From contig JBEKFP010000001.1 in the NCBI GenBank assembly GCA_050013255.1, positions 1,024,001-1,088,000 of the forward strand: DNA of 64,000 nt. The letters run 5' to 3'. This document shows positions 14,349 through 61,391 of the stretch, in pieces. This stretch comes from Candidatus Bathyarchaeia archaeon (GTDB taxonomy: Archaea > Thermoproteota > Bathyarchaeia > 40CM-2-53-6). The first letter of the stretch is position 1, and each line of letters opens with the position of its first letter. A program made the position numbers and the translations under genes. A model generated the notes under the pieces. The model had not been told where the DNA came from and searched no databases. It worked only from the letters and a program-made list of their open reading frames with translations.

Positions 14349-15203
14349 TTAACGGGATACTTCGCCGACTTCTCTATACCAAGGCTTAGAAGTACCCGTC
14401 TTAGCACGCTTCTCCCAATCCTTCGTCTTGGGGCATGCATCAATAATCTTCCGCAACCCAGCCACCCTATCTGTGACAATAGCACACTGCCCGTCGGTAA
14501 TACCTGCCTTCTGACTCGCCAGCTCACGAGCCAGCGCATCTACCGACCCTAGGTTGTTCGTCGCGTCGTACCAAAATCCCCAATCGTTAGATAGTATCCT
14601 CGAAACATATCCGGCATCTATCATGTCATTGCCCGGTTCCTCTAGAACGTCATGCCCTAAGAAGAGGACGATTAAATCTAATACGTCTTTGCGATTGATC
14701 TGATGTATTTGCAATTTTTCGAGAACTATGTCCGCAAGGGATATTGTTGGGTAGTCAAGTTCTAGCCTTCCCGAGCCGGGCTTTTTCCCGAATTCAACGT
14801 CGTGGCTGAATTCCAGTTTGTCAATGAATAGGTCGATTGGAAACTTGCCTTCAGGATGATGGTAAATCAGCCTTCGTCCTCCGAACATCATATTAGCCAT
14901 GTTGTCCGGTTTGAACCCCGCCTCCTCGAGGATCTTGGTTGCATTACCTCTTTGCTTACCATATAACGCGAGGTCTAGGTCTGTGAACATGGGCTTTCCA
15001 TCACCGAGCCTGCCCAATGATTTGAACGCTGACAGGGCAACCTGGTTGTCGAGGGAATGAACATAAACGGCGAAAGCGCCTAGGAATCTCAGGAAGATTT
15101 GCTTTGCCTGAGCTTTTTCGACAATGACGCTCGCTTCCTTGAGAAACTCGGTCTCATTCATCTGAACGAAGTGTGCTGGTTGGGTCAAAGGAAGATTGGG
15201 CAC
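14349..15203 (-). CDS. Uncharacterised nucleotidyltransferase-like protein (Pol-beta superfamily)
   Basis: LRFLGAFAV...FTDLDL (DxD) and IDLFID (third Asp). Shares KLQI..IN.KD..D, LSNDWG and WY.EVGEV with 56300..57190. Confidence 0.75.
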   Translation of the reverse strand: MPNLPLTQPAHFVQMNETEFLKEASVIVEKAQAKQIFLRFLGAFAVYVHSLDNQVALSAFKSLGRLGDGKPMFTDLDLALYGKQRGNATKILEEAGFKPDNMANMMFGGRRLIYHHPEGKFPIDLFIDKLEFSHDVEFGKKPGSGRLELDYPTISLADIVLEKLQIHQINRKDVLDLIVLFLGHDVLEEPGNDMIDAGYVSRILSNDWGFWYDATNNLGSVDALARELASQKAGITDGQCAIVTDRVAGLRKIIDACPKTKDWEKRAKTGTSKPWYREVGEVSR

Positions 15204-15548: not shown

Positions 15549-17138
15549 TTGGCTGCCAAGCAGGAATTTTTTGCTAGGAAAGCTTCAGGTCTCGTGAGGC
15601 AAATCTCAGCCAAAGACGCATTGATGTTTAACATTCTATTCATGGGGCCTAATTGGACTTTCATCTACATTGTTTTTGACGCTGCGCTCTACCCTGGTGC
15701 AAACGTGCCTTTAGCCCAACTGATTGTTGCCCCCCTCATCTTCATAGTCGCGTTAACTTACACTATGCTGGCGGTGACGATGCCTCGGGCGGGGGCGGAC
15801 TTCGTTTGGATCAGCAGATCAATTCATCCCTTCGTCGGTTTCATTGAGAGCTGGATCTTGGTAGTTTTCATCGCATCGTATTTTGGCGTACAGGGAAGCG
15901 CATTCATTGGGCCCGCAATCGGGAGCCTCTATGGTGGCTGGGCGTTGATCACGAACAATCCGGGACTGACGAGCATGATTGCGACCCTCACCACTCCGCT
16001 GAATCTGGTAATCTTCACCGTGATCTGTATTGTAATAACTCAGATACAGGTCGCTGCTGGAACAAAGAACTACTTTAGACTTCAGTGGGTCTGGTTCAGC
16101 TTCGTCTGCTTGGGCATTCTACTCTACGCGGGCTCAATGCTTCTGACTGGACACGATGGATTCGTCGCAAGATTCAATCAACTCTCAGGTATGAACTACG
16201 ACAACATAATAACGGCTGCGCAGTCGGCAGGCTACAACACCGGTTTCACTACATTCGGAATGCTGTTCGGAACGGTGTACGCATTCTTGATTTACTGGGG
16301 CTTCTCGTGGTCCTCATTTTTCGCTGGAGAAATGAAAGAGGCATACCGGTCCCAGATCATCGCGATAGTAGGCGGTGTAATCATCTTCGCGTTCGCGACC
16401 TGGGGACAATACCAGATCGCCTACATGGTTGTAGGCCAACCATTCATGCATGCCGCATCATACCTTGCCGTGTCCGGTAACCCTGCATGGACCGCGCCGA
16501 CAGGCCCCTGGCTCTGCTACCTTGTAGCTTTCGCAACCAACAATCCCTATGTCGCAGCAATAGTCGCATCCTCAATTCTGATTGGCGTCTTAGGAACGCT
16601 GGCGTCGTACTCATTCATGATGACAAGAGTGTTGTTCGCGTGGTCTTTCGACCGTCTCCTCCCAACTGCGTTCTCGAACCTTGACCGGCAATTTCACTCA
16701 CCAAGAAATGCCCTCGGCCTTGCATTCGTCTTAGCTATGGTCTTCGTCTACCTCGGTAACTATACGACCTTGCTTAACTACCTAGTCTACGGAACTCTGG
16801 GATTATGGGCAACTTCCACGATTGTCGGAATTGCCGCCGCAGTATTTCCGTATAGGCGCAAGGATATCTTCGAGAAAGCGCCCGGGATTGCGAAGAAGAT
16901 GATCGGCAAAGTTCCCTTGATGGCACTGCTAGGAGCGATAACCGCCGTCGTCAGCGCCTTCGGCGCAATCGCATCCGCTCTGCCGCAATTCATTGGTGCT
17001 CCGGTCAACCCATTCTACGTAGCGGCCGCAGGCGCAACAGTGTTCATTGGAATCATCTACTTCGTCTTAGTCTACACATACAACCAGCGGAGAGGCCTCG
17101 ACATGACCATCGCCTTCCGCGAAATACCGCCCCTATAA
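15549..17138 (+). CDS. APC-family amino acid permease
   Basis: Many hydrophobic segments; FARKASGLVR N-terminus, MPRAGAD..WISR, AGEMK, RVLFAWSFDRLLP, C-terminal FREIPP. Confidence 0.92.
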   Translation: MAAKQEFFARKASGLVRQISAKDALMFNILFMGPNWTFIYIVFDAALYPGANVPLAQLIVAPLIFIVALTYTMLAVTMPRAGADFVWISRSIHPFVGFIESWILVVFIASYFGVQGSAFIGPAIGSLYGGWALITNNPGLTSMIATLTTPLNLVIFTVICIVITQIQVAAGTKNYFRLQWVWFSFVCLGILLYAGSMLLTGHDGFVARFNQLSGMNYDNIITAAQSAGYNTGFTTFGMLFGTVYAFLIYWGFSWSSFFAGEMKEAYRSQIIAIVGGVIIFAFATWGQYQIAYMVVGQPFMHAASYLAVSGNPAWTAPTGPWLCYLVAFATNNPYVAAIVASSILIGVLGTLASYSFMMTRVLFAWSFDRLLPTAFSNLDRQFHSPRNALGLAFVLAMVFVYLGNYTTLLNYLVYGTLGLWATSTIVGIAAAVFPYRRKDIFEKAPGIAKKMIGKVPLMALLGAITAVVSAFGAIASALPQFIGAPVNPFYVAAAGATVFIGIIYFVLVYTYNQRRGLDMTIAFREIPPL

Positions 17139-17259: not shown

Positions 17260-18234
17260 TCACCCAGAAGTTAGCTGCCAACTGAGCACTTTCTTGTCTG
17301 CGAGGTTCACGAGTACTCCTCGCAGTATTCCCTCCGAGTATTCGCTGCCGGGGTTGACGACTTGTGTTCTCCCAATTTTACATACCCCTCTGGACTCGTG
17401 TACGTGACCGCACAAGTCGATTAGCGGTTGATACTTGTCAATTGCTTTTCGAACCGCTGCGCTTCCAGCTCCAAACATGATAGGTTGTCCACCACGATCA
17501 ACCACAGGTTTTGGAGGGTACACCGAGTCGTCTAACTTCTGAACAGTGTCTAGGCCGCAGTCTATTGGTGGACTGTGGAAGTTGAAAACACAATTGGCCG
17601 TGTTTGTCACAGAGGCCATTACTTTCTCAATGCGTTCACTGAGTTCCCCTTCATTGCATTCACGCGGGCATTTCCAAGGAGTTGGATTGCTCCATCCCAT
17701 GCTTGCCATTTCATGAAGCGGATCGATCTTGACCACCTTGTTATCTGGATTCTTCACGTGCTTAGTCTCCTTGATCTCGTCGATAACCTCCTGCATGTCA
17801 TCGTTTCCACCAGTAATGAAGCAAGGGGTGTTCGATTCGCTTAGAACTCGTTCGGCCAAATCAATCCAACGAACAAGCGTTTCCTTCATAACCTTGACAA
17901 AGAGAGCGTCAACCTTCTCCTTTGAAGCTTGGAGCTCTTCCATCTCAGACATGCTGCAATGGTAGTAGTAGTAACCGCTGTCGCCTATTCGCCGTTCCAG
18001 ATCCTTGACAGCTTCAGGAGTCTTGAGGATTTCTTCATTCCCAACGAACCTTGCTCTGAATGTCCCGTCACCCAGATCTACAATCGGTATCACGAGTTTC
18101 CCGGTGACATCTCCCCCCAGCACAAGAACATCTGCCTTGTAGAATTTGGTAGCGGCTAAGAATTTCGTGAAGCAGCGCTCAGATCCGTGGATGTCCGTCG
18201 CAAAGAAGACCCTTGTGAATTTCTTTCCTTGCAT
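17260..18234 (-). CDS. Calcineurin-like (Icc-related) metallophosphoesterase
   Basis: Motifs DIHG, GGDVTGK, GGNDD, HSPP, GHVHES, NPGSEY. Confidence 0.9.
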   Translation of the reverse strand: MQGKKFTRVFFATDIHGSERCFTKFLAATKFYKADVLVLGGDVTGKLVIPIVDLGDGTFRARFVGNEEILKTPEAVKDLERRIGDSGYYYYHCSMSEMEELQASKEKVDALFVKVMKETLVRWIDLAERVLSESNTPCFITGGNDDMQEVIDEIKETKHVKNPDNKVVKIDPLHEMASMGWSNPTPWKCPRECNEGELSERIEKVMASVTNTANCVFNFHSPPIDCGLDTVQKLDDSVYPPKPVVDRGGQPIMFGAGSAAVRKAIDKYQPLIDLCGHVHESRGVCKIGRTQVVNPGSEYSEGILRGVLVNLADKKVLSWQLTSG

Positions 18235-53099: not shown

Positions 53100-54476
53100 A
53101 TGACTCTGCGCGAAATCGCGAAAAAGATCAGAAGCGGTGAGACATCTCCATCAGAGATAGTGAGGCTGCTATTGGAGCAGATCCGGCGTACGGATGACAA
53201 GTTACAAGCATACATAACCGTGTGTGAGGAGAGCTCTCTGAAACTCGCCGAGGCTGCGGAGCTTCAGCTAAAGGCAGGCCATGACCTCGGAGTTCTGCAT
53301 GGAATCCCGGTCTCGATCAAGGATCTGTACGAGACCGAAGGAATTCGCACAACATGCGGCTCCAGACTAATGCAAGACTATGTCCCGAAGAAGGACTCTA
53401 CAGTCGTCGCGCGCTTGAAATCGAAAGGTGCGATAGTTCTAGGGAAACTGAACACGCACGAATTCGCCTTAGGAGCAATGAGTCCTCCAACGAAAAATCC
53501 TTGGGACCTCGGTCGCATCCCAGGAGGTTCAAGCGGCGGTTCTGCGGCAGCTTTGGCTATGGGGTCTGCAATCGCAACGACCGGCTCTGACACGGGTGGA
53601 TCCATCAGAATCCCGGCGTCATTCTGTGGAGTTGTCGGGTTGAAGCCAACTTACGGACGTGTTAGTCGCGCGGGCATATTTCCGGAAAGTTGGTCCCTTG
53701 ATCATGCAGGTCCGCTAACCAAGAGACTTGAGGATGCCGCCTTGCTTCTCAGGATAATGGCTGGAAGAGACGAGTTGGATCCAACTTCCTCAGACCTCCC
53801 GGTACCGGATTATGTCCAAGAACTGGAAACCAATATCGCAGGCCTAAGAGTAGGCGTGCCGACAAACCACTTCTTCGAACACTGCGATTGTGAGATTGCA
53901 AAGGCAGTTAATGCGGCGGTCGAAGTGCTGGAAGGATTGGGTTGCACTAAAGTAGAGTTCGAATTCCCAAGCATTTCCGAGATCATGGCCGCCTACACAA
54001 CAATCGACTTGTGCGAGGCAAGCGCCTATCACGAACGGGAAATCGAACAAAGGGCCGCCGACTTTCAACCGGATGTACGTCTCCTATTGGAACAAGGCCT
54101 TCTCATTCCTGCAAGCTATTACATCCAAGCTCAGAGAGTCAGAGCAATGCTTTTCGCGAAAGTGATGAGCCTGTTCGATCACCTGGATGTGATTGTCACG
54201 CCTTCCGTACCTATTGTATCGCCCCAGGTGAGTCAGACCATCGTAAGAATCGATGATTATGAGGAAAGCGTAGACAGTGCTGCAGTCCGCTACCTCGCGC
54301 CCTTCAACCTAACCGGATTGCCTGCGCTCTCGATTCCCTGTGGCTTCTCGAGCAAAGGCCTACCAATCGGAATGCAGATAGCGGGAAGGGCCTATGATGA
54401 AAGCACGATACTAAGACTCGGCCATGAATATGAAAATGCAACAGAATGGCACATGAGGCTACCTGAGACATCATAA
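53100..54476 (+). CDS. Amidase signature family enzyme (GatA/AtzE-like)
   Basis: HGIPVSIKD, GKLNTHEFA, PGGSSGGSAAA, GSDTGGSIRIPASFCG, GLPIGMQ. Confidence 0.93.
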   Translation: MTLREIAKKIRSGETSPSEIVRLLLEQIRRTDDKLQAYITVCEESSLKLAEAAELQLKAGHDLGVLHGIPVSIKDLYETEGIRTTCGSRLMQDYVPKKDSTVVARLKSKGAIVLGKLNTHEFALGAMSPPTKNPWDLGRIPGGSSGGSAAALAMGSAIATTGSDTGGSIRIPASFCGVVGLKPTYGRVSRAGIFPESWSLDHAGPLTKRLEDAALLLRIMAGRDELDPTSSDLPVPDYVQELETNIAGLRVGVPTNHFFEHCDCEIAKAVNAAVEVLEGLGCTKVEFEFPSISEIMAAYTTIDLCEASAYHEREIEQRAADFQPDVRLLLEQGLLIPASYYIQAQRVRAMLFAKVMSLFDHLDVIVTPSVPIVSPQVSQTIVRIDDYEESVDSAAVRYLAPFNLTGLPALSIPCGFSSKGLPIGMQIAGRAYDESTILRLGHEYENATEWHMRLPETS

Positions 54477-54580: not shown

Positions 54581-54596
54581 CCAAAGTATTAAATAC
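54581..54596 (+). promoter_or_regulatory. TATA box for leaderless APC permease operon
   Basis: CCAAAGTATTAAATAC lies about 23 nt upstream of GTG 54617. Confidence 0.55.
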
Positions 54597-54616: not shown

Positions 54617-56233
54617 GTGAGCGTTTTGTCATCTAATCAAAGTTCAAAGAAAGGTGACTTGTATCTTCGACGCGCTAGCGGCCTGGTGAGAACTGCAGGT
54701 CCATGGTCTGGTCTCGCATTCAATGTCATTTGGACTGGAAATGCGGTCGGAATTATCGCGGCCTTCATATTGAACTCATACGTCTTCGTGGCACCTGGCC
54801 AGAACATAGTTGGGCTAATACTTGTTGCCACATTGCTTTCCACCCTGAATGCGGCAACTTACATGTTCTTCTCAATGGCCATGCCACGGTCTGGTGGCGA
54901 CTACCACTACATCGGGAGAACCCTACATCCAGCGCTAGGTTTCATGAGTAGTGTCAACTGGGCGTTGTGGCTTCCCCTCGTGTTGGGCTTCGGTGGCTCA
55001 GCATTTGTTCCAATCGCACTCAACTCAATCGTGAAATCTTGGGGAGTAGCCACCAACAACCCCGTTGCAATTGCTTTTGCAGATACATTGCTTCAACAGA
55101 ATTTCGTATTTCTGACCGGAGCGATTCTGATAATCTTCTTTACGGCGATTACGATTCTGGGCACGAAAGTCTACTTTACCATACAAAACATTTCCTTCAT
55201 GTTCATGATATTGGCTGTCTTAATCACAGTTGCCGCCTTTGTAGTGAATACTCCTAGTACCTTCGCTGCGGCAATAGACCGTTCACTCGGCCAGGGTACC
55301 TATAGCTCAACTATACAGACATTTCAAACGAACTACCCATCAATCAAGCGTCCACCGGTGATCGCGATTTTGAGCGGCATCGCCCTGTGGGCCGGAATTA
55401 ACACTTGGGCGATGGGCACTTCATTGATTGCCGGCGAGGTAAAGGAGGAGAGAAAACTGAAAACGTGGATGATCGCCAACATCTTGGGCACATTGGTCAC
55501 TGGCGGAATAATGGCTTTAACCGCTTATCTCTACTTGTCATCAGTAGGAGAGAAATTCGTCTACGCAATGTCTTACCTGAGCGGTTCCGCTGGCTACAAG
55601 CTGGTATTTCCGCCCTACTACTCCTCATTTATTCCATTTGCGTTCCCGAATGTCATAGTGTTCATCATATTCGGCCTAGGCTTCTTCCTTGGTGGCATCT
55701 TCTTTTTCCCACAGAACCAGATACTCGCAAGCAGAGTCATGCTTGCTTGGTCCTTCGACCGCCTCATGCCTGGACAACTTGGACAAGTAGACAAGAGGTT
55801 CCACGCGCCGATCGTGGCGACCGCGATCTGCGGCATTATCGCGCTCATCTCGCTGTGGGTCTACGTCTATACATCATACCTCGGCTTCTTCTCGCAGCTC
55901 TTCGCCGTCGCATTCAGTTTCCTTCTAACATCAATCGCGGCCATCGTCTTCCCATTCCGCAGGAAAGCTATGTTCGAATCATCCTCAGCCAACATCAAAA
56001 TCGCAGGCCTTCCTCTAATGAGCCTTGTCGGACTCGCAAACGCAATCTTTATGGCCATATTCATTTACCAAAACTGGACAGACAGCACGCTAGGCTCGAA
56101 CAACCCTGTATCACTCGCACTTATTCTCGGAATACTAGTTGTTTCCTTCGCCCTGTTCTTCATAATACGGGCGATCAGGAAACGCCAAGGCATCGACATA
56201 GATGCGCTATTCCGAGAAATCCCGCCTGAGTGA
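54617..56233 (+). CDS. APC-family amino acid permease (paralogue of 15549..17138)
   Basis: YLRRASGLVR, MPRSGGDY, AGEVK, RVMLAWSFDRLMP, FPFRRK, FREIPPE. Confidence 0.92.
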   Translation: MSVLSSNQSSKKGDLYLRRASGLVRTAGPWSGLAFNVIWTGNAVGIIAAFILNSYVFVAPGQNIVGLILVATLLSTLNAATYMFFSMAMPRSGGDYHYIGRTLHPALGFMSSVNWALWLPLVLGFGGSAFVPIALNSIVKSWGVATNNPVAIAFADTLLQQNFVFLTGAILIIFFTAITILGTKVYFTIQNISFMFMILAVLITVAAFVVNTPSTFAAAIDRSLGQGTYSSTIQTFQTNYPSIKRPPVIAILSGIALWAGINTWAMGTSLIAGEVKEERKLKTWMIANILGTLVTGGIMALTAYLYLSSVGEKFVYAMSYLSGSAGYKLVFPPYYSSFIPFAFPNVIVFIIFGLGFFLGGIFFFPQNQILASRVMLAWSFDRLMPGQLGQVDKRFHAPIVATAICGIIALISLWVYVYTSYLGFFSQLFAVAFSFLLTSIAAIVFPFRRKAMFESSSANIKIAGLPLMSLVGLANAIFMAIFIYQNWTDSTLGSNNPVSLALILGILVVSFALFFIIRAIRKRQGIDIDALFREIPPE

Positions 56234-56299
56234 CAGCTACTTCTTCCTCCACTTTTTCTCAAACCCGATTTTTACGGGACGATCGAAAACAGAACACGA

Positions 56300-57190
56300 T
56301 TGTGTGACGAAAAGGTGATTAGGGCACTGCAAATTCACGTCACGCAAGTAGGCTTTAGAGGAGTCTCATTCGACCTGCAATCTGCAACCACGAGAGACGT
56401 GAGGAGCTTGTCCGAGAAGGCGACCAACGACGACAAAGACCGAACATTCCTTGATGAGACTTCCAAGATTATCGAAGCGGCAGAGAATAATGATGTGCTC
56501 CTAAGGGTCATGGGCTCTATTGCGTTCAAGCTCCATTGCCCACAGTTCTCTTACATGAGCGACCAGATGAATCGAAAGCTCACTGATATCGACTTCGCCT
56601 CGTACAGTTCTGAGATGAATAGCGTGGATCAGCTTCTGCGAGACCTTGATTACACCACCCAATCCTACGTCCAGCTTGCAGCAGCGTCTGTGGGAAGGTC
56701 GATCTACTGGAAAAAAGACAATTCAGTCCACATCGATGTGTTTTGGGATAAGCTGCAGATGAATCATACCGTCAACTTCCGTGGTAGACTGGAAACGGAT
56801 GAGCCGACAATCCCGCTCCCAGAACTCCTACAAGAGAAGTTCCAGATAGTGAAGATCAACTGGAAGGACATAAAAGATGTCGTTATGCTCCTTCGCGAGC
56901 ATGATGTAGCAGAGAAAGATTCAGGACGCGAAGCCGTCGACCTCTCGATCATTAGCAAAGTGTTGTCGAATGACTGGGGGTACTACTACACGTTCACCCA
57001 AAACATTAAAGAAACTCAAACCCGAATCCAAGAACTCACAATGCTCTCTGAAAACGATAAGGCGACCGTAACTGCTAGGTTAACTAGGGTGCTTGAGACG
57101 ATCGAGAGCGCACGAAAGAGCGCCAAATGGACTTTGAGGTCTAAGATTGGAACCAAGCGTATCTGGTATACCGAGGTGGGTGAAGTATAA
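56300..57190 (+). CDS. Uncharacterised nucleotidyltransferase-like protein (Pol-beta superfamily)
   Basis: LRVMGSIAFKLHC...LTDIDF, HIDVFWD, KFQIVKINWKD, LSNDWG, WYTEVGEV. The real start is probably near 56399-56408. Confidence 0.75.
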   Translation: MCDEKVIRALQIHVTQVGFRGVSFDLQSATTRDVRSLSEKATNDDKDRTFLDETSKIIEAAENNDVLLRVMGSIAFKLHCPQFSYMSDQMNRKLTDIDFASYSSEMNSVDQLLRDLDYTTQSYVQLAAASVGRSIYWKKDNSVHIDVFWDKLQMNHTVNFRGRLETDEPTIPLPELLQEKFQIVKINWKDIKDVVMLLREHDVAEKDSGREAVDLSIISKVLSNDWGYYYTFTQNIKETQTRIQELTMLSENDKATVTARLTRVLETIESARKSAKWTLRSKIGTKRIWYTEVGEV

Positions 57191-58140
57191 TGGCTTCAAC
57201 CAAGATTTTCTTCACCTCAGATGTGCATGGATCTGACCTTGTCTTCAAGAAATTTCTAAACGCGGGCAAAGCGTACAAGGCAAGCTACCTCATTCTTGGA
57301 GGAGATATTACAGGCAAAGGCCTTGTGCTCGTCTCGAAGGACGCAAATGGCTACAAGGCGAATTTCCTTGGAAAGGACGTCATGGCGACGAACGAAGCTG
57401 ATTTTGAGCGACTTAAAGGGCAAATCGTGAAGAACGGTTTCTACGTATACGTGGGCGACCCGAGCACCATAAGTGAAATGAGAGAGTCCACTGACAAGTC
57501 GGAAAAAGTTCTGATGGAATGCATGAAGGAAAGGCTCGAGTTTTGGCTGAACCTTGCAGAAGAACGGCTAAAGGGAACTGGCATTGAGTGTTACATCTCC
57601 CCCGGCAATGACGATGGGTACGAAATCGATTCAATCCTGAACTCGAGCAGCATCGTTGTCAATCCAGAGGAAAAAGTAGTCTCGCTGGCGGGGGATTACG
57701 AGATGATAACAATGGGGAAAGTCAACATGACCCCTTGGAAATGCCCACGCGACGTGACTGAGGAAGAGGTTGAGAACACGCTCGAGCACATGGTATCTCA
57801 GGTCCATGATTTTGGCAAGGCTATCTTCAACCTCCACGTACCACCCTATGACACTCTGCTCGATATCGCACCAGAACTTGACAGCGAACTAAGAGTTGTG
57901 AACCGCGGGGGGCAACCGAGTATGGTGCATGTGGGTTCTGCTTCAGTTAGGCGAGCAATAGAGAAGTATCAACCGATGCTCGGGTTACATGGGCACATAC
58001 ATGAATCAAAAGGAGTCGAGAAGATCGGGCAGTCCCTCTGTCTCAACCCCGGAAGCGAATACCAGGAAGGAATCCTGAGGGGCGCACTAATCACTCTCGA
58101 TTCGGGCAAGCTAAAGAACTATCTGCTGACATCGGCATAG
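57190..58140 (+). CDS. Calcineurin-like (Icc-related) metallophosphoesterase
   Basis: DVHG, GGDITGK, PGNDD, HVPP, HGHIHES, NPGSEY. TAATG overlap with the NTase gene. Confidence 0.9.
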   Translation: MASTKIFFTSDVHGSDLVFKKFLNAGKAYKASYLILGGDITGKGLVLVSKDANGYKANFLGKDVMATNEADFERLKGQIVKNGFYVYVGDPSTISEMRESTDKSEKVLMECMKERLEFWLNLAEERLKGTGIECYISPGNDDGYEIDSILNSSSIVVNPEEKVVSLAGDYEMITMGKVNMTPWKCPRDVTEEEVENTLEHMVSQVHDFGKAIFNLHVPPYDTLLDIAPELDSELRVVNRGGQPSMVHVGSASVRRAIEKYQPMLGLHGHIHESKGVEKIGQSLCLNPGSEYQEGILRGALITLDSGKLKNYLLTSA

Positions 58141-58210: not shown

Positions 58211-58456
58211 ATGAACGTTGCAGGTCAACGGCTTGGAGTTAGACGTTTATCGGTGGTAGACACCCATACCGTGGGAGAACCCACGAGTGTTGTGACCGGA
58301 TTTCCATTGGTTCGCGGAGGGTCCCTGACAGAAATCAAGAATGACATGCAGGAAAACCATTATTGGTTGAGGCGCTTCATCCTTCACGGAAGTGTGCTCT
58401 TCGACAGCACAGAGCCCCACTTGTCCCAGTGTCGATCTTTTTCGATTCTGATATAG
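58211..58456 (+). pseudogene. 5' stub of a proline racemase family gene
   Basis: SVVDTHTVGEPTSVVTGFPL..G.....KNDMQENHYWLRRFIL matches the N-terminus of 58661..59653; it diverges before EPRGH. Confidence 0.8.
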
Positions 58457-58660: not shown

Positions 58661-59653
58661 TCATTCAAGCAAGAAGCCGTTTACTAACGGGTCATTCTCA
58701 TCAAAAACGAGTTTGTTGAAACCTGTGATGTAGGCAGAGCCCGTGATTTCTGGAACAATCGCGTCATAATCACCTACCCTCGTTTCGCTGATAATTCTGC
58801 CTTTGAACTTAGTTCGGAGTATGCTTTCATGAACGAATGCGTCCCCGACTCGAAGCTCCCCTTCTGAATGAAGCAACGCCATTTTAGCACAGGTTCCTGT
58901 TCCGCATGGTGATCGGTCCAATTGCCCTCGTCCGAAAACAACAGCATTTTGTGCATGCGCGTCCTTGCTCTTAGGAGGGCCCGCGAATTCTACGAGTTCC
59001 ACCCGATTGATGTGTGGAAGGTTTGGATGGACGACCTTCTCTTGAGCATTCACGATCTTCTTGATTTCTATGCCCAAATCAATTAGAACGGTTTTGTTCC
59101 AAGGCTCCAAATCAACACCAAGTTCCTTTGCCTTCACATGCGCGAAAAAGTCTCCGCCGAAGAGCAGATCCACACTGATCAATTTGCGTCCCAGTGTTAC
59201 GTTTACGGTTCGAAGTCTGAATGCGGGAACGTTTTCGAAACTTACTGTTTGGACGCCGTTCCCTTGGTACCGCACTCTTGTCTTCACGACACCTGCTGAA
59301 GTGTCAATCAAGATTTCCTCTTTGGGTTCAATGATTTTCGTTTGGACAGCATAGGTGACAACACCTATCAGGCCATGCCCGCACATGTCCAGATAGCCTC
59401 CATTGTGCATCCAAAAGGCCCCAAGATCGCACCCTTTCCGTTTTGGAGGGCAAAGAATGGCTCCGAACATGTCGCTGTGCCCCCTTGGTTCTTCCAGTAC
59501 GAAGCGCCTAAACCAATCATGATTTGTTTGCATGTCGTCCTTGAGTTGCGCAATCGTTTCGCCACGGAGCGGGAAATCCGTCACGATCCGGGTAGGTTCC
59601 CCAGCAGTGTGCGTATCCACGACAGAATATTCGCGTTGGGACAAAAGCATCAA
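58661..59653 (-). CDS. Proline racemase / hydroxyproline 2-epimerase (Cys/Cys type)
   Basis: DTHTAGEPTR, EPRGHSDMFG, MCGH, DRSPCGTG. Confidence 0.92.
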   Translation of the reverse strand: MMLLSQREYSVVDTHTAGEPTRIVTDFPLRGETIAQLKDDMQTNHDWFRRFVLEEPRGHSDMFGAILCPPKRKGCDLGAFWMHNGGYLDMCGHGLIGVVTYAVQTKIIEPKEEILIDTSAGVVKTRVRYQGNGVQTVSFENVPAFRLRTVNVTLGRKLISVDLLFGGDFFAHVKAKELGVDLEPWNKTVLIDLGIEIKKIVNAQEKVVHPNLPHINRVELVEFAGPPKSKDAHAQNAVVFGRGQLDRSPCGTGTCAKMALLHSEGELRVGDAFVHESILRTKFKGRIISETRVGDYDAIVPEITGSAYITGFNKLVFDENDPLVNGFLLE

Positions 59654-60074: not shown

Positions 60075-61391
60075 TTAGTGGCGAGTTTGGACGTATTGTT
60101 CCACAGTAGACAGCAACTTCCGTATGTCCTCTACTGAATGCGCATAAGAGATTGCGCCGTGCAGCATTTCAGGTATGAGTACCAAGATGCCATTAGCAAG
60201 GAGGTGATTGAACAAGGTCTTTGATTGTTGATGGTCGCTCATAGCATGGCCGGTTACGTCTCGTAGAGGTTTCTTATTGATCATGTGTATAGAGACGAGG
60301 GAGCCGACGCCTGCTGCCTGTGCTGGGAATGCGTTCTTTTCGAAGATTGCGTTGAGGCCGTCTCGGGACATCTTCCCTAGTTCGTCAATATGGTCATGGA
60401 CTGGCTGATGTTCGAGCACATTAATAGTAGCGAGGCCTGCGGCTAAGCTGAGTGCGTTTCCCGCGAATGTTCCGCCATGATAAGCGTAATCCAAACCTGA
60501 ATACTTCAGGTGATCCATATGCTCCATAACGTCACGCCTTCCACAAACGGCGCCAATGGGAAGACCACCGCCGATGATCTTACCGAGAACCGTCAAATCC
60601 GGCATCACACCAAGAAAGCCCTGCGCTCCACTTAGACCAAGGCGGAAGCCAGTGACTACCTCATCATAGATTAGAAGAGTTCTAGTTCGGTCACAGTATC
60701 CTCTCAATGCCTTGAGGAAATCCATTTCAGCCGAAATGCCCCCTCCAGCTGACAAGACTGGCTCAAGAAGCACGCACGCTAGCTGTTCATCTCTGACGCG
60801 GTTCTTGAAACCTTCAAAATCATTGTACGGCACGACAACAGTATCTCGTTGCGAACCTTGCGTGATTCCTCCAGAAGGTGGTTGACCGTACGGAGGCTTT
60901 GTGGCCAAATGCAATGGGTCGTATGCGCCGTGCCACCCTCCTTCAAACTTTGCAATCTTAGAGCGCTTCGTGAAAGTTCTGGCAAGCCGGATGGCGAAGA
61001 GGTTCGCCTCGCTCCCGGAGCTTGTGTAGCGAACGAGCTCCGCGCTGGGCACGTGTTTTGTTATAGTTTCAGAAAGCGTAACTTCCAGTTCGTGGGCTAC
61101 ACCGAAGTGCCAACCCTTCTCAGCCTGCGCTTTGATGGCTTCCATGACAGTTGGATATGCGTGTCCGAGTATCATCGCGAAATGCGTACACCAGTAATCA
61201 GTGTATGTGTTGCCGTCGATGTCAACGAGTTTAGCCCCTCTGGCTTCCTTGGCGAAGAAGGGGTATGGTTCGAACCACCTAATGCCGTATGAGACGCCAG
61301 CCGGTTCAACTTTTTTGGCGCGTTCAAACATTGCGTGGGATTTCGGAGTTCGCGAAGCATATTCCGACTCTTTCAAAACTACGCTGTCCAA
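60075..61391 (-). CDS. Class III aminotransferase, glutamate-1-semialdehyde aminomutase-like
   Basis: DIDGNTYTD, ILGHA, SGSEA, KFEGGWHG, DEVVTGFR, LGKIIGGGLP, GTFAGN. Confidence 0.88.
   Translation of the reverse strand: MDSVVLKESEYASRTPKSHAMFERAKKVEPAGVSYGIRWFEPYPFFAKEARGAKLVDIDGNTYTDYWCTHFAMILGHAYPTVMEAIKAQAEKGWHFGVAHELEVTLSETITKHVPSAELVRYTSSGSEANLFAIRLARTFTKRSKIAKFEGGWHGAYDPLHLATKPPYGQPPSGGITQGSQRDTVVVPYNDFEGFKNRVRDEQLACVLLEPVLSAGGGISAEMDFLKALRGYCDRTRTLLIYDEVVTGFRLGLSGAQGFLGVMPDLTVLGKIIGGGLPIGAVCGRRDVMEHMDHLKYSGLDYAYHGGTFAGNALSLAAGLATINVLEHQPVHDHIDELGKMSRDGLNAIFEKNAFPAQAAGVGSLVSIHMINKKPLRDVTGHAMSDHQQSKTLFNHLLANGILVLIPEMLHGAISYAHSVEDIRKLLSTVEQYVQTRH

Follow-up and report, generated by a model that had tools for sequence, protein, structure and literature searches.

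A permease subfamily almost always accompanied by its own nucleotidyltransferase and phosphoesterase in archaea and bacteria suggests an undescribed control or processing of nutrient uptake

GlnD and GlnE are bifunctional enzymes that carry out both the transfer and the removal of nucleotidylyl groups, nucleotidyltransferases (NTases) of the MNT type with a Pol-beta fold AMPylate HEPN proteins, and the metallophosphoesterase PptH cleaves a phosphodiester carried by a protein serine. To our knowledge, no dedicated covalent-modification enzymes are known for secondary amino-acid and amine permeases of the APC/SLC7 type. The present work concerns a trio of genes encoding an APC-superfamily permease, a nucleotidyltransferase (hereafter NT) and a metallophosphoesterase (hereafter PE), found at positions 54617-58140 of a 64,000-nucleotide stretch of DNA (the window) from Candidatus Bathyarchaeia archaeon (NCBI GenBank assembly GCA_050013255.1, contig JBEKFP010000001.1, positions 1,024,001 to 1,088,000 of the forward strand). 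A reading of the window by itself, referred to here as the original prediction, had proposed that these genes constitute an undescribed module present in two copies. We find that the permease subfamily is almost always accompanied by its own NT and PE, in archaea as well as in bacteria, and this suggests that nutrient uptake is controlled or processed in a way not described before. No description of the trio was found in the literature library searched, using the family combination, aq_1956/TT1561/PF14582 or PF14907 as starting points.

All three genes of the locus, hereafter copy 2, are present as open reading frames (ORFs) on the + strand, as had been claimed. The permease (P0001, 538 amino acids (aa), GTG start, Pfam AA_permease_2) occupies 54617-56233, NT (P0002, 296 aa when read from TTG 56300, with a Pol-beta fold according to the alignment and an AlphaFold2 (AF2) model) 56300-57190, and PE (P0003, 316 aa, calcineurin-like according to Pfam Metallophos, alignments and an AF2 model) 57190-58140. 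Copy 1 consists of NT at 14349-15203 (- strand; detected by tblastn, 33% identity to P0002), the permease at 15549-17138 (+ strand; 29% identity to that of copy 2, with the same N- and C-terminal motifs) and PE at 17260-18234 (- strand; 43% identity to P0003), its NT and PE forming rows of the respective alignments. The motifs that the original prediction listed as common to both copies were all found in both. The count of two copies was too low, as eight loci of this genome hold a complete trio; profile searches of the genome returned ten permeases of the subfamily, ten NT, and nine full-length plus one partial PE. Among 401 genomes of the phylum, NT is present in 80, PE in 82 and the permease subfamily in 85, with both NT and PE in 77 genomes and the permease in 81 of the 82 genomes that have PE. 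The mismatches correspond to fragments at contig ends, one NT with an in-frame stop, or divergent NT below the detection threshold that adjoin PE. When 40 NT loci from 40 genomes were inspected, PE and the permease lay within 5 kb of NT in at least 28. Linkage and three-way co-occurrence thus identify the proposed module as a real conserved unit, and we consider it very likely that permease, NT and PE function together.

The arrangement of the genes is variable. The trios that could be assigned cleanly number 34 (34 loci) and fall into 13 distinct arrangements of order and orientation; PE adjoins the permease in 31 trios and NT adjoins PE in 24, of which 12 pairs are co-directional and nine convergent. 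At copy 2, the stop codon of NT (TAA, 57188-57190) and the start codon of PE (ATG, 57190-57192) have one base in common, and the predicted TAATG overlap at 57188-57192 can indeed be read on the + strand. The order permease-NT-PE of copy 2 occurs in only one of the 34 trios; translational coupling is therefore a local feature and not a property of the system. The stoichiometric co-production that had been deduced from the overlap does not generalise either, NT and PE being convergent in nine trios and unlinked in some lineages. Outside the archaea, the trio occurs in Anaerolineales (Chloroflexota), in the order GntR, permease, PE, NT, FGGY, in contigs of Poribacteria and Planctomycetota, in other bacterial contigs together with MTTB/MtmB and an APH-type kinase, and in one glp-like operon (DeoR, permease, PE, NT, FGGY, GlpA-like, GlpB-like). 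The enzyme families are large, with 966 clusters at 50% identity for NT (E<=1e-30) and more than 8,000 matches for PE in a word-indexed search; a query of the Protein Atlas with NT returned only clusters named 'nucleotidyltransferase family protein', mostly from Chloroflexota.

The permease belongs to the APC superfamily, P0001 matching AA_permease_2 over residues 42-508 with 70.2 bits against a Pfam cut-off of 27 (E 2e-19). The closest solved relative identified by profile search is GkApcT (E 3e-26), and AA_permease_2 is common to the trio permeases and transporters of the GkApcT/SLC7 type. Differently from these transporters, trio permeases possess additional conserved motifs in their N- and C-terminal cytoplasmic segments, as well as obligate NT and PE partners. 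In P0001 the N-terminal cytoplasmic motif reads L-R-R-A-S-G-L-V-R, and the C-terminal tail G-I-D-x4-F-R-E-I-P-P-E. The pattern R-x-x-[ST]-G-L-[VIT]-R precedes the first transmembrane segment in 38 of 39 full-length subfamily members, the remaining one being an ORF call that starts too late, and its hydroxyl residue (Ser or Thr) is invariant; ...[FY]-x-E-[IL]-P-P-x is found at the C-terminus of all 39. Both end motifs are kept from archaea to Planctomycetota, bacterial members included, and neither occurs in the other two APC permeases that this genome encodes. By these sequence features, the trio permeases are a distinct SLC7-like subfamily of the APC superfamily with family-specific cytoplasmic termini. 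Pfam searches found no known receptor domain in the permease.

P0002 reaches only 18.5 bits (E 0.0017) with NTP_transf_5 (PF14907), below the Pfam cut-off of 31.2, and is not assigned to this family; some NT homologues carry a precomputed PF14907 match. As NT is only sub-threshold in Pfam, its assignment as an NTase rests on alignment and fold. An alignment of 36 NT sequences (32-70% identity) contains 24 invariant columns, among them the Pol-beta catalytic set G37, D61-x-D63 and D111, which places NT in this superfamily, and a K..Q-I...K-D..D motif formed by K145, Q147, K154-D155 and D158; the C-terminal region is conserved and rich in W, K and R. NT thus looks catalytically intact and active. 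Searches of solved structures by sequence returned nothing with the single sequence and only chance matches with the profile (filaggrin, E 0.04), and Foldseek with the AF2 model (predicted local distance difference test score (pLDDT) of 91) gave no match at E<=0.001. Only an exhaustive VIA-align search resolved the clade to which NT belongs, a compact group of small NTases from prokaryotes: the best match is ANT(2'')-Ia (Z 12.9 over 154 residues, root-mean-square deviation 3.1), followed by MenT1 (Z 12.0), JHP933 (Z 11.3), LnuA (Z 10.6), MenT3 (Z 10.4) and MenT4 (Z 9.8), with every other match below Z 7.

With the antibiotic O-nucleotidyltransferases ANT(2'')-Ia and LnuA, NT shares a Pol-beta core comprising the G, DxD and third Asp elements as well as a helical C-terminal domain. 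It differs from them in its low identity (14-17%, with no family match at the sequence level), in a longer C-terminal domain bearing its own invariant W, K and R residues, and in its genomic partners, a permease and PE, which are unlike resistance genes. The likeness to MenT/AbiEii (DUF1814) toxins consists of the fold (Z 9.8-12.0) and of the residues K145, K154-D155 and D158, which resemble motif IV of AbiEii/MenT proteins (K...[KR]DxxD) in the sequence alignment; no AbiEii match was found in NT by Pfam. Unlike these toxins, NT has neither a cognate antitoxin nor a fixed operon, is inherited vertically with a transporter, and is not basic (median isoelectric point 6.5).

PE is a calcineurin-like enzyme: P0003 matches Metallophos with 27.1 bits against a Pfam cut-off of 21.5 (E 7e-6), and the seven canonical metal ligands D11, H13, D39, N140, H216, H269 and H271 are all invariant. 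With Metallophos_3 (PF14582) it scores 20.8 bits, below the cut-off of 28.2. The canonical GNH[DE] is replaced by GNDD in 34 of 34 sequences, the exchanged His being a non-ligand, and an insert of approximately 95 residues separates motifs II and III. Judged from these residues, PE looks like a catalytically intact, active metallophosphodiesterase. Its closest relatives by both profile and fold are the Metallophos_3-type proteins aq_1956 (2yvt; best profile match, E 2.5e-5; Z 24.3 in VIA-align with the AF2 model of pLDDT 95.7) and TT1561 (1uf3; Z 23.2), from which it differs by the insert and by GNDD; these are structural-genomics proteins for which we know of no function. LpxH and Rv0805 were also found by profile, and the next fold matches are MPPED2 (Z 20.6), Rv0805 (Z 18.4) and PptH (6unc; Z 16.2), together with Mre11, whose fold PE shares along with that of the DP1 exonuclease, and GpdQ. 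Among these, the phosphopantetheinyl hydrolase PptH of M. tuberculosis is a metallophosphoesterase cleaving a protein-serine phosphodiester, which is the kind of reaction proposed below for PE; it is, however, only a distant relative with a different substrate and context. Note also that P0244 (607 aa, from a JGI metagenome) is a PE of this family fused to an SMP-30/gluconolactonase (SGL) domain.

That NT and PE belong together, as the original prediction held, is supported by their near-perfect co-occurrence across genomes and by natural fusion proteins. A search for longer proteins revealed a family of NT-PE fusions of 572-581 aa (at least 12 clusters), exemplified by P0259, in which NT spans residues 2-252 and PE residues 270-573; a permease gene of the trio subfamily is found close to the fusion genes. 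In addition, two putative PE-permease fusions, the singletons P0261 and P0248, carry PE at the permease N-terminus, and in P0261 PE (residues 3-295) leads directly into the permease N-motif. The congruent phylogenies expected of the three families were partly recovered: of 31 bipartitions, the PE and permease trees have 15 in common, the NT and PE trees nine and the NT and permease trees seven, against a mean of about 0.25 and a maximum of three after label shuffling, so that congruence is well above chance and not full. Distances between the trio families are correlated (Mantel r 0.57-0.79). Most of the paralogues in this genome resemble copies from other genomes more closely than they resemble one another, which implies that the sets are old; they appear to have been inherited largely as sets.

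A physical contact between PE and the permease is predicted as well. Modelling of the permease with PE gave a complex score of 0.54 (three runs, 0.52-0.55), the best of three controls reaching 0.01; at least 80% of contacts are common to the runs, and the pLDDT of the partner is at least 85. In a benchmark, 58 of 80 solved complexes reached the mark applied to such predictions, as did 2 of 110 mismatched pairs; at scores of 0.60 or less, those that reached it were only seven of the 80 solved complexes plus both of the passing mismatches, so a score in this range lends slight weight to the idea that PE may dock on the permease. We know of no solved complex between an APC permease and a metallophosphoesterase. 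The proposed link of the two enzymes to their cognate permease is supported by gene adjacency, by trees that agree in part, by the family-specific ends of the permease, by the rare putative fusions of PE to a permease and by the docking score, which passes only weakly.

The catabolic genes surrounding the trios differ from set to set. Copy 2 is flanked by an amidase immediately on its 5' side and by a proline-racemase-family gene and a class-III aminotransferase on its 3' side; copy 1 by AstE/AspA, formamidase, class-V and PALP enzymes; and the other loci of this genome by cyclase/formamidase, deacetylase, adenine deaminase, creatininase, M20 and aldehyde dehydrogenase genes. In bacteria, the flanks contain glp (glycerol) genes, MTTB/MtmB (methylamine) or octopine dehydrogenase (opine). 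The families recurring next to the trio are FmdA_AmdA (approximately ten loci), FGGY (at least five) and class-III aminotransferase (five), and no neighbour family is universal across the loci, i.e., there is no fourth obligatory gene. Because the flanking genes differ between sets, the imported compounds are probably diverse nitrogen-rich molecules. A glycerophosphodiester or phospho-amine was also considered as a common substrate, in view of the glp-like and MTTB/APH contexts, and was rejected since most archaeal loci are flanked by varied amidohydrolases.

What, then, do NT and PE act upon? Although the catabolic flanks vary, the NT and PE pockets are invariant, and both enzymes keep many invariant residues beyond the catalytic ones across paralogues, which favours a common acceptor over diverse solutes and hence a switch dedicated to the permease. 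A common acceptor, the fusion of opposing activities, the conserved permease termini and the predicted docking of PE taken together favour the writing and erasing of a nucleoside monophosphate (NMP) on the transporter; we infer both this chemistry and its target. NT would transfer NMP from a nucleoside triphosphate (NTP) to a hydroxyl group that the transporter complex presents to the cytoplasm; the invariant Ser/Thr of the N-motif R-x-x-[ST]-G-L-V-R is the best candidate for this acceptor. PE, docked on the permease, possibly via the invariant C-terminal E-[IL]-P-P tail, would hydrolyse the phosphodiester again and remove NMP. Each importer of nitrogen-rich compounds could in this way be switched according to the state of the cell, following the logic of GlnD/GlnE but acting on the transporter itself. 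The explanation we prefer, tentatively and at somewhat less than even confidence, is that each permease has its cognate NT and PE as a dedicated writer/eraser pair, which operates a reversible nucleotidylation switch. Its more specific form, a previously unknown transporter control in which docked PE and the cognate NT reversibly nucleotidylate the permease N-terminal Ser/Thr, or a partner sitting on the E-I-P-P tail, is plausible in outline and on balance somewhat doubtful.

The comparison with GlnD/GlnE is one of function. In both cases an NTase of the Pol-beta type is paired, and sometimes fused, with an activity that cleaves phosphodiesters, and just as GlnD is tied to nitrogen uptake via PII and AmtB, the trio is linked to the uptake of nitrogen compounds. 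However, the presumed eraser of the trio is a calcineurin-like metallophosphoesterase, where GlnD/GlnE have an HD or a second NT domain, the permease itself is presumed to be the target in place of a defined Tyr of PII or GS, one enzyme pair exists per permease, and no PII protein is involved. Pfam found no HD, ACT or second NT domain in the trio enzymes, no homology to GlnD/GlnE was detected beyond the NT fold, and no linked PII gene was present at the trio loci except for a chance neighbour in one of them (L085).

Several observations weigh against a nucleotidylation switch on the permease. Among the structures nearest to NT, those whose substrate is known modify small molecules (ANT(2'')-Ia, LnuA) or tRNA (MenT) and not proteins. 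Kinases recur beside NT (FGGY at five or more loci, APH at three), a hint that the imported compound is metabolised. Regulation would be costly if every permease needed a dedicated enzyme pair, and a role directed at the substrate would also account for paralogue-specific sets. The docking prediction passes only weakly. Genome families f31 and f33, which comprise larger, complete genomes and are probably ammonia oxidisers, possess NT, PE and the permease mostly unlinked. Finally, distances among the eight sets of this genome are not significantly correlated (Mantel r 0.10-0.49, p 0.10-0.33, n=8), a result that neither supports nor refutes co-duplication.

The most serious alternative shifts the chemistry from the transporter to its cargo. 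NT would nucleotidylate the imported solute at a group common to all substrates and PE would cleave the adduct, either releasing the solute (trapping or proofreading) or, by a cut on the ribose side, leaving a phosphorylated product, in which case the pair would in effect be a kinase working in two steps; every paralogous set would be adapted to a single compound. Small-molecule O-nucleotidyltransferases as the nearest characterised folds of NT (ANT(2'')-Ia, Z 12.9; LnuA, Z 10.6) would fit such a scheme, as would the PE relatives that hydrolyse nucleotide diphosphates or cyclic nucleotides (LpxH, Rv0805) or glycerophosphodiesters (GpdQ), the recurrence of FGGY and APH kinases beside NT, and the bacterial locus lying inside a glp-like operon. 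Sets specific to each paralogue are what one expects where enzymes must match a solute, and a metabolon would account for PE docking on the permease too. However, the pockets of NT and PE are highly invariant from one paralogue to the next in spite of the great chemical diversity of the flanking pathways. To nucleotidylate a solute and then simply hydrolyse the adduct would be a futile drain of ATP, and most loci have neither a kinase nor an enzyme that could handle a nucleotidylated intermediate. Such a scheme also offers no explanation for the conserved cytoplasmic ends of the permease. Chemistry on the solute therefore appears unlikely to us, though well worth keeping in view.

The invariant pockets would also fit a universal small ligand, which brings in a second alternative, namely that NT produces a local signalling nucleotide and PE degrades it, with the permease serving as receptor or as sensor of substrate flux. 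Pairs for the synthesis and degradation of nucleotide signals are known (Rel synthetase/hydrolase, GGDEF/EAL), opposing activities in one polypeptide, as in the NT-PE fusions, are typical of second-messenger enzymes, and PE resembles cyclic-nucleotide phosphodiesterases (Rv0805, Z 18.4; MPPED2, Z 20.6). Nevertheless, NT is far from the folds of CD-NTase/cGAS and RelA/SpoT (Z ~4-5), a diffusible signal does not need one NT/PE pair per permease, and the permease lacks any known receptor domain in Pfam searches, which makes a signalling nucleotide quite improbable. Least credible of all is a toxin-antitoxin-like system, in which NT would block tRNA 3' ends as MenT/AbiEii-like enzymes do, PE would remove the added nucleotides and the permease linkage would be incidental: the fold that NT shares with MenT1, MenT3 and MenT4, its residues resembling their K..KD..D motif, the Mre11 and DP1 exonuclease fold of PE and the strict NT/PE co-occurrence speak for it, but it is contradicted by the 13 gene arrangements with NT and PE often convergent in place of a fixed bicistronic operon, by deep vertical co-inheritance with the permease subfamily and occurrence in small streamlined genomes, by the lack of an AbiEi/MenA-type partner and of a Pfam AbiEii match, by the non-basic NT, and by the absence of mobile-element marks at the trio loci.

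The trio is thus an uncharacterised, widespread system for which a writer/eraser function is plausible. If nucleotidylation of the permease is correct, a single cell could switch as many as ten parallel uptake systems for nitrogen-rich compounds independently of each other. A conserved unit of permease, NTase and phosphodiesterase would give a role to two large families of 'hypothetical' enzymes, and would help to explain how many organic-nitrogen importers are managed in peat and sediment archaea (Bathyarchaeia-like), ammonia oxidisers and Chloroflexota. Either outcome would be new, be it a regulatory principle (transporter nucleotidylation) or a chemistry of uptake (nucleotidyl trapping), and the NT-PE fusions and invariant permease termini offer direct experimental handles.

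The immediate surroundings of copy 2 deserve a few further remarks. A TATA-like element resembling the consensus, TATTAAATA (54587-54595, + strand), lies approximately 22 nucleotides (nt) 5' of the permease GTG, a position that fits a leaderless or short-leader transcript. Another TATA-like element, ATTTTTAC (56268-56275, + strand), is located approximately 25 nt 5' of the NT TTG and is a possible internal promoter, so that the NT-PE pair may have a promoter of its own; a single TATA box serving all three genes, as had been assumed, is therefore unproven. Candidate NT starts are TTG 56300, GTG 56315 and GTG 56399; the last would yield a protein of 263 aa, in line with the length of NT homologues (255-265 aa). 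At the other end of the window, the N-terminal part of a divergent 359-aa NT-like gene (positions 3-455, - strand) was recognised by clustering and hmmsearch (E 4e-48 to the NT profile); its permease and PE partners are found just upstream of the window (G000:C1:1020416-1023080) and complete a further trio.

The amidase-signature enzyme preceding copy 2 (53100-54476, + strand; Pfam Amidase, E 1e-120) ends 140 nt 5' of the permease. Directly 3' of PE, a short ORF (58211-58456, + strand) corresponds to the N-terminal ~45 residues only of a proline-racemase-family protein (Pfam Pro_racemase, E 4e-6, 26.6 bits) and looks like the relic of a gene that formerly continued the copy-2 operon; a full-length paralogue of this family is located at 58661-59653, convergent to the short ORF. 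Together with the class-III aminotransferase (60075-61391), the amidase and the proline-racemase-family gene may define the class of compound imported by copy 2.

Some loci elsewhere depart from the common pattern. In Planctomycetota-type loci (L086:2227-3167, L087:10592-11499, L088:5375-6282), two genes of ~144-162 aa follow directly on the 3' side of the permease and separate it from NT/PE or from the NT-PE fusion; they match no Pfam family, are absent from archaeal loci and may encode additional subunits. In two families of larger, complete genomes (L043, L044 and L048, from G030, G038 and G313), NT bears a C-terminal extension, is unlinked from PE and the permease, and sits in a conserved block that includes thymidylate kinase. 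A paralogous locus of the present genome (G000:C1:946609-947291; L025:8610-9292) has a 166-aa ORF without a Pfam family between PE and NT, together with the remnant of a second PE copy, its last ~59 residues (49% identity, one stop), in the same interval. Finally, this genome has an orphan NT (G000:C1:138192-139058, - strand; L029) that lies away from any PE or permease; it overlaps a PmbA/TldD pair at the end of that pair, and its flanks hold an M24/creatinase-like peptidase and a DDAH/ADI-like enzyme.

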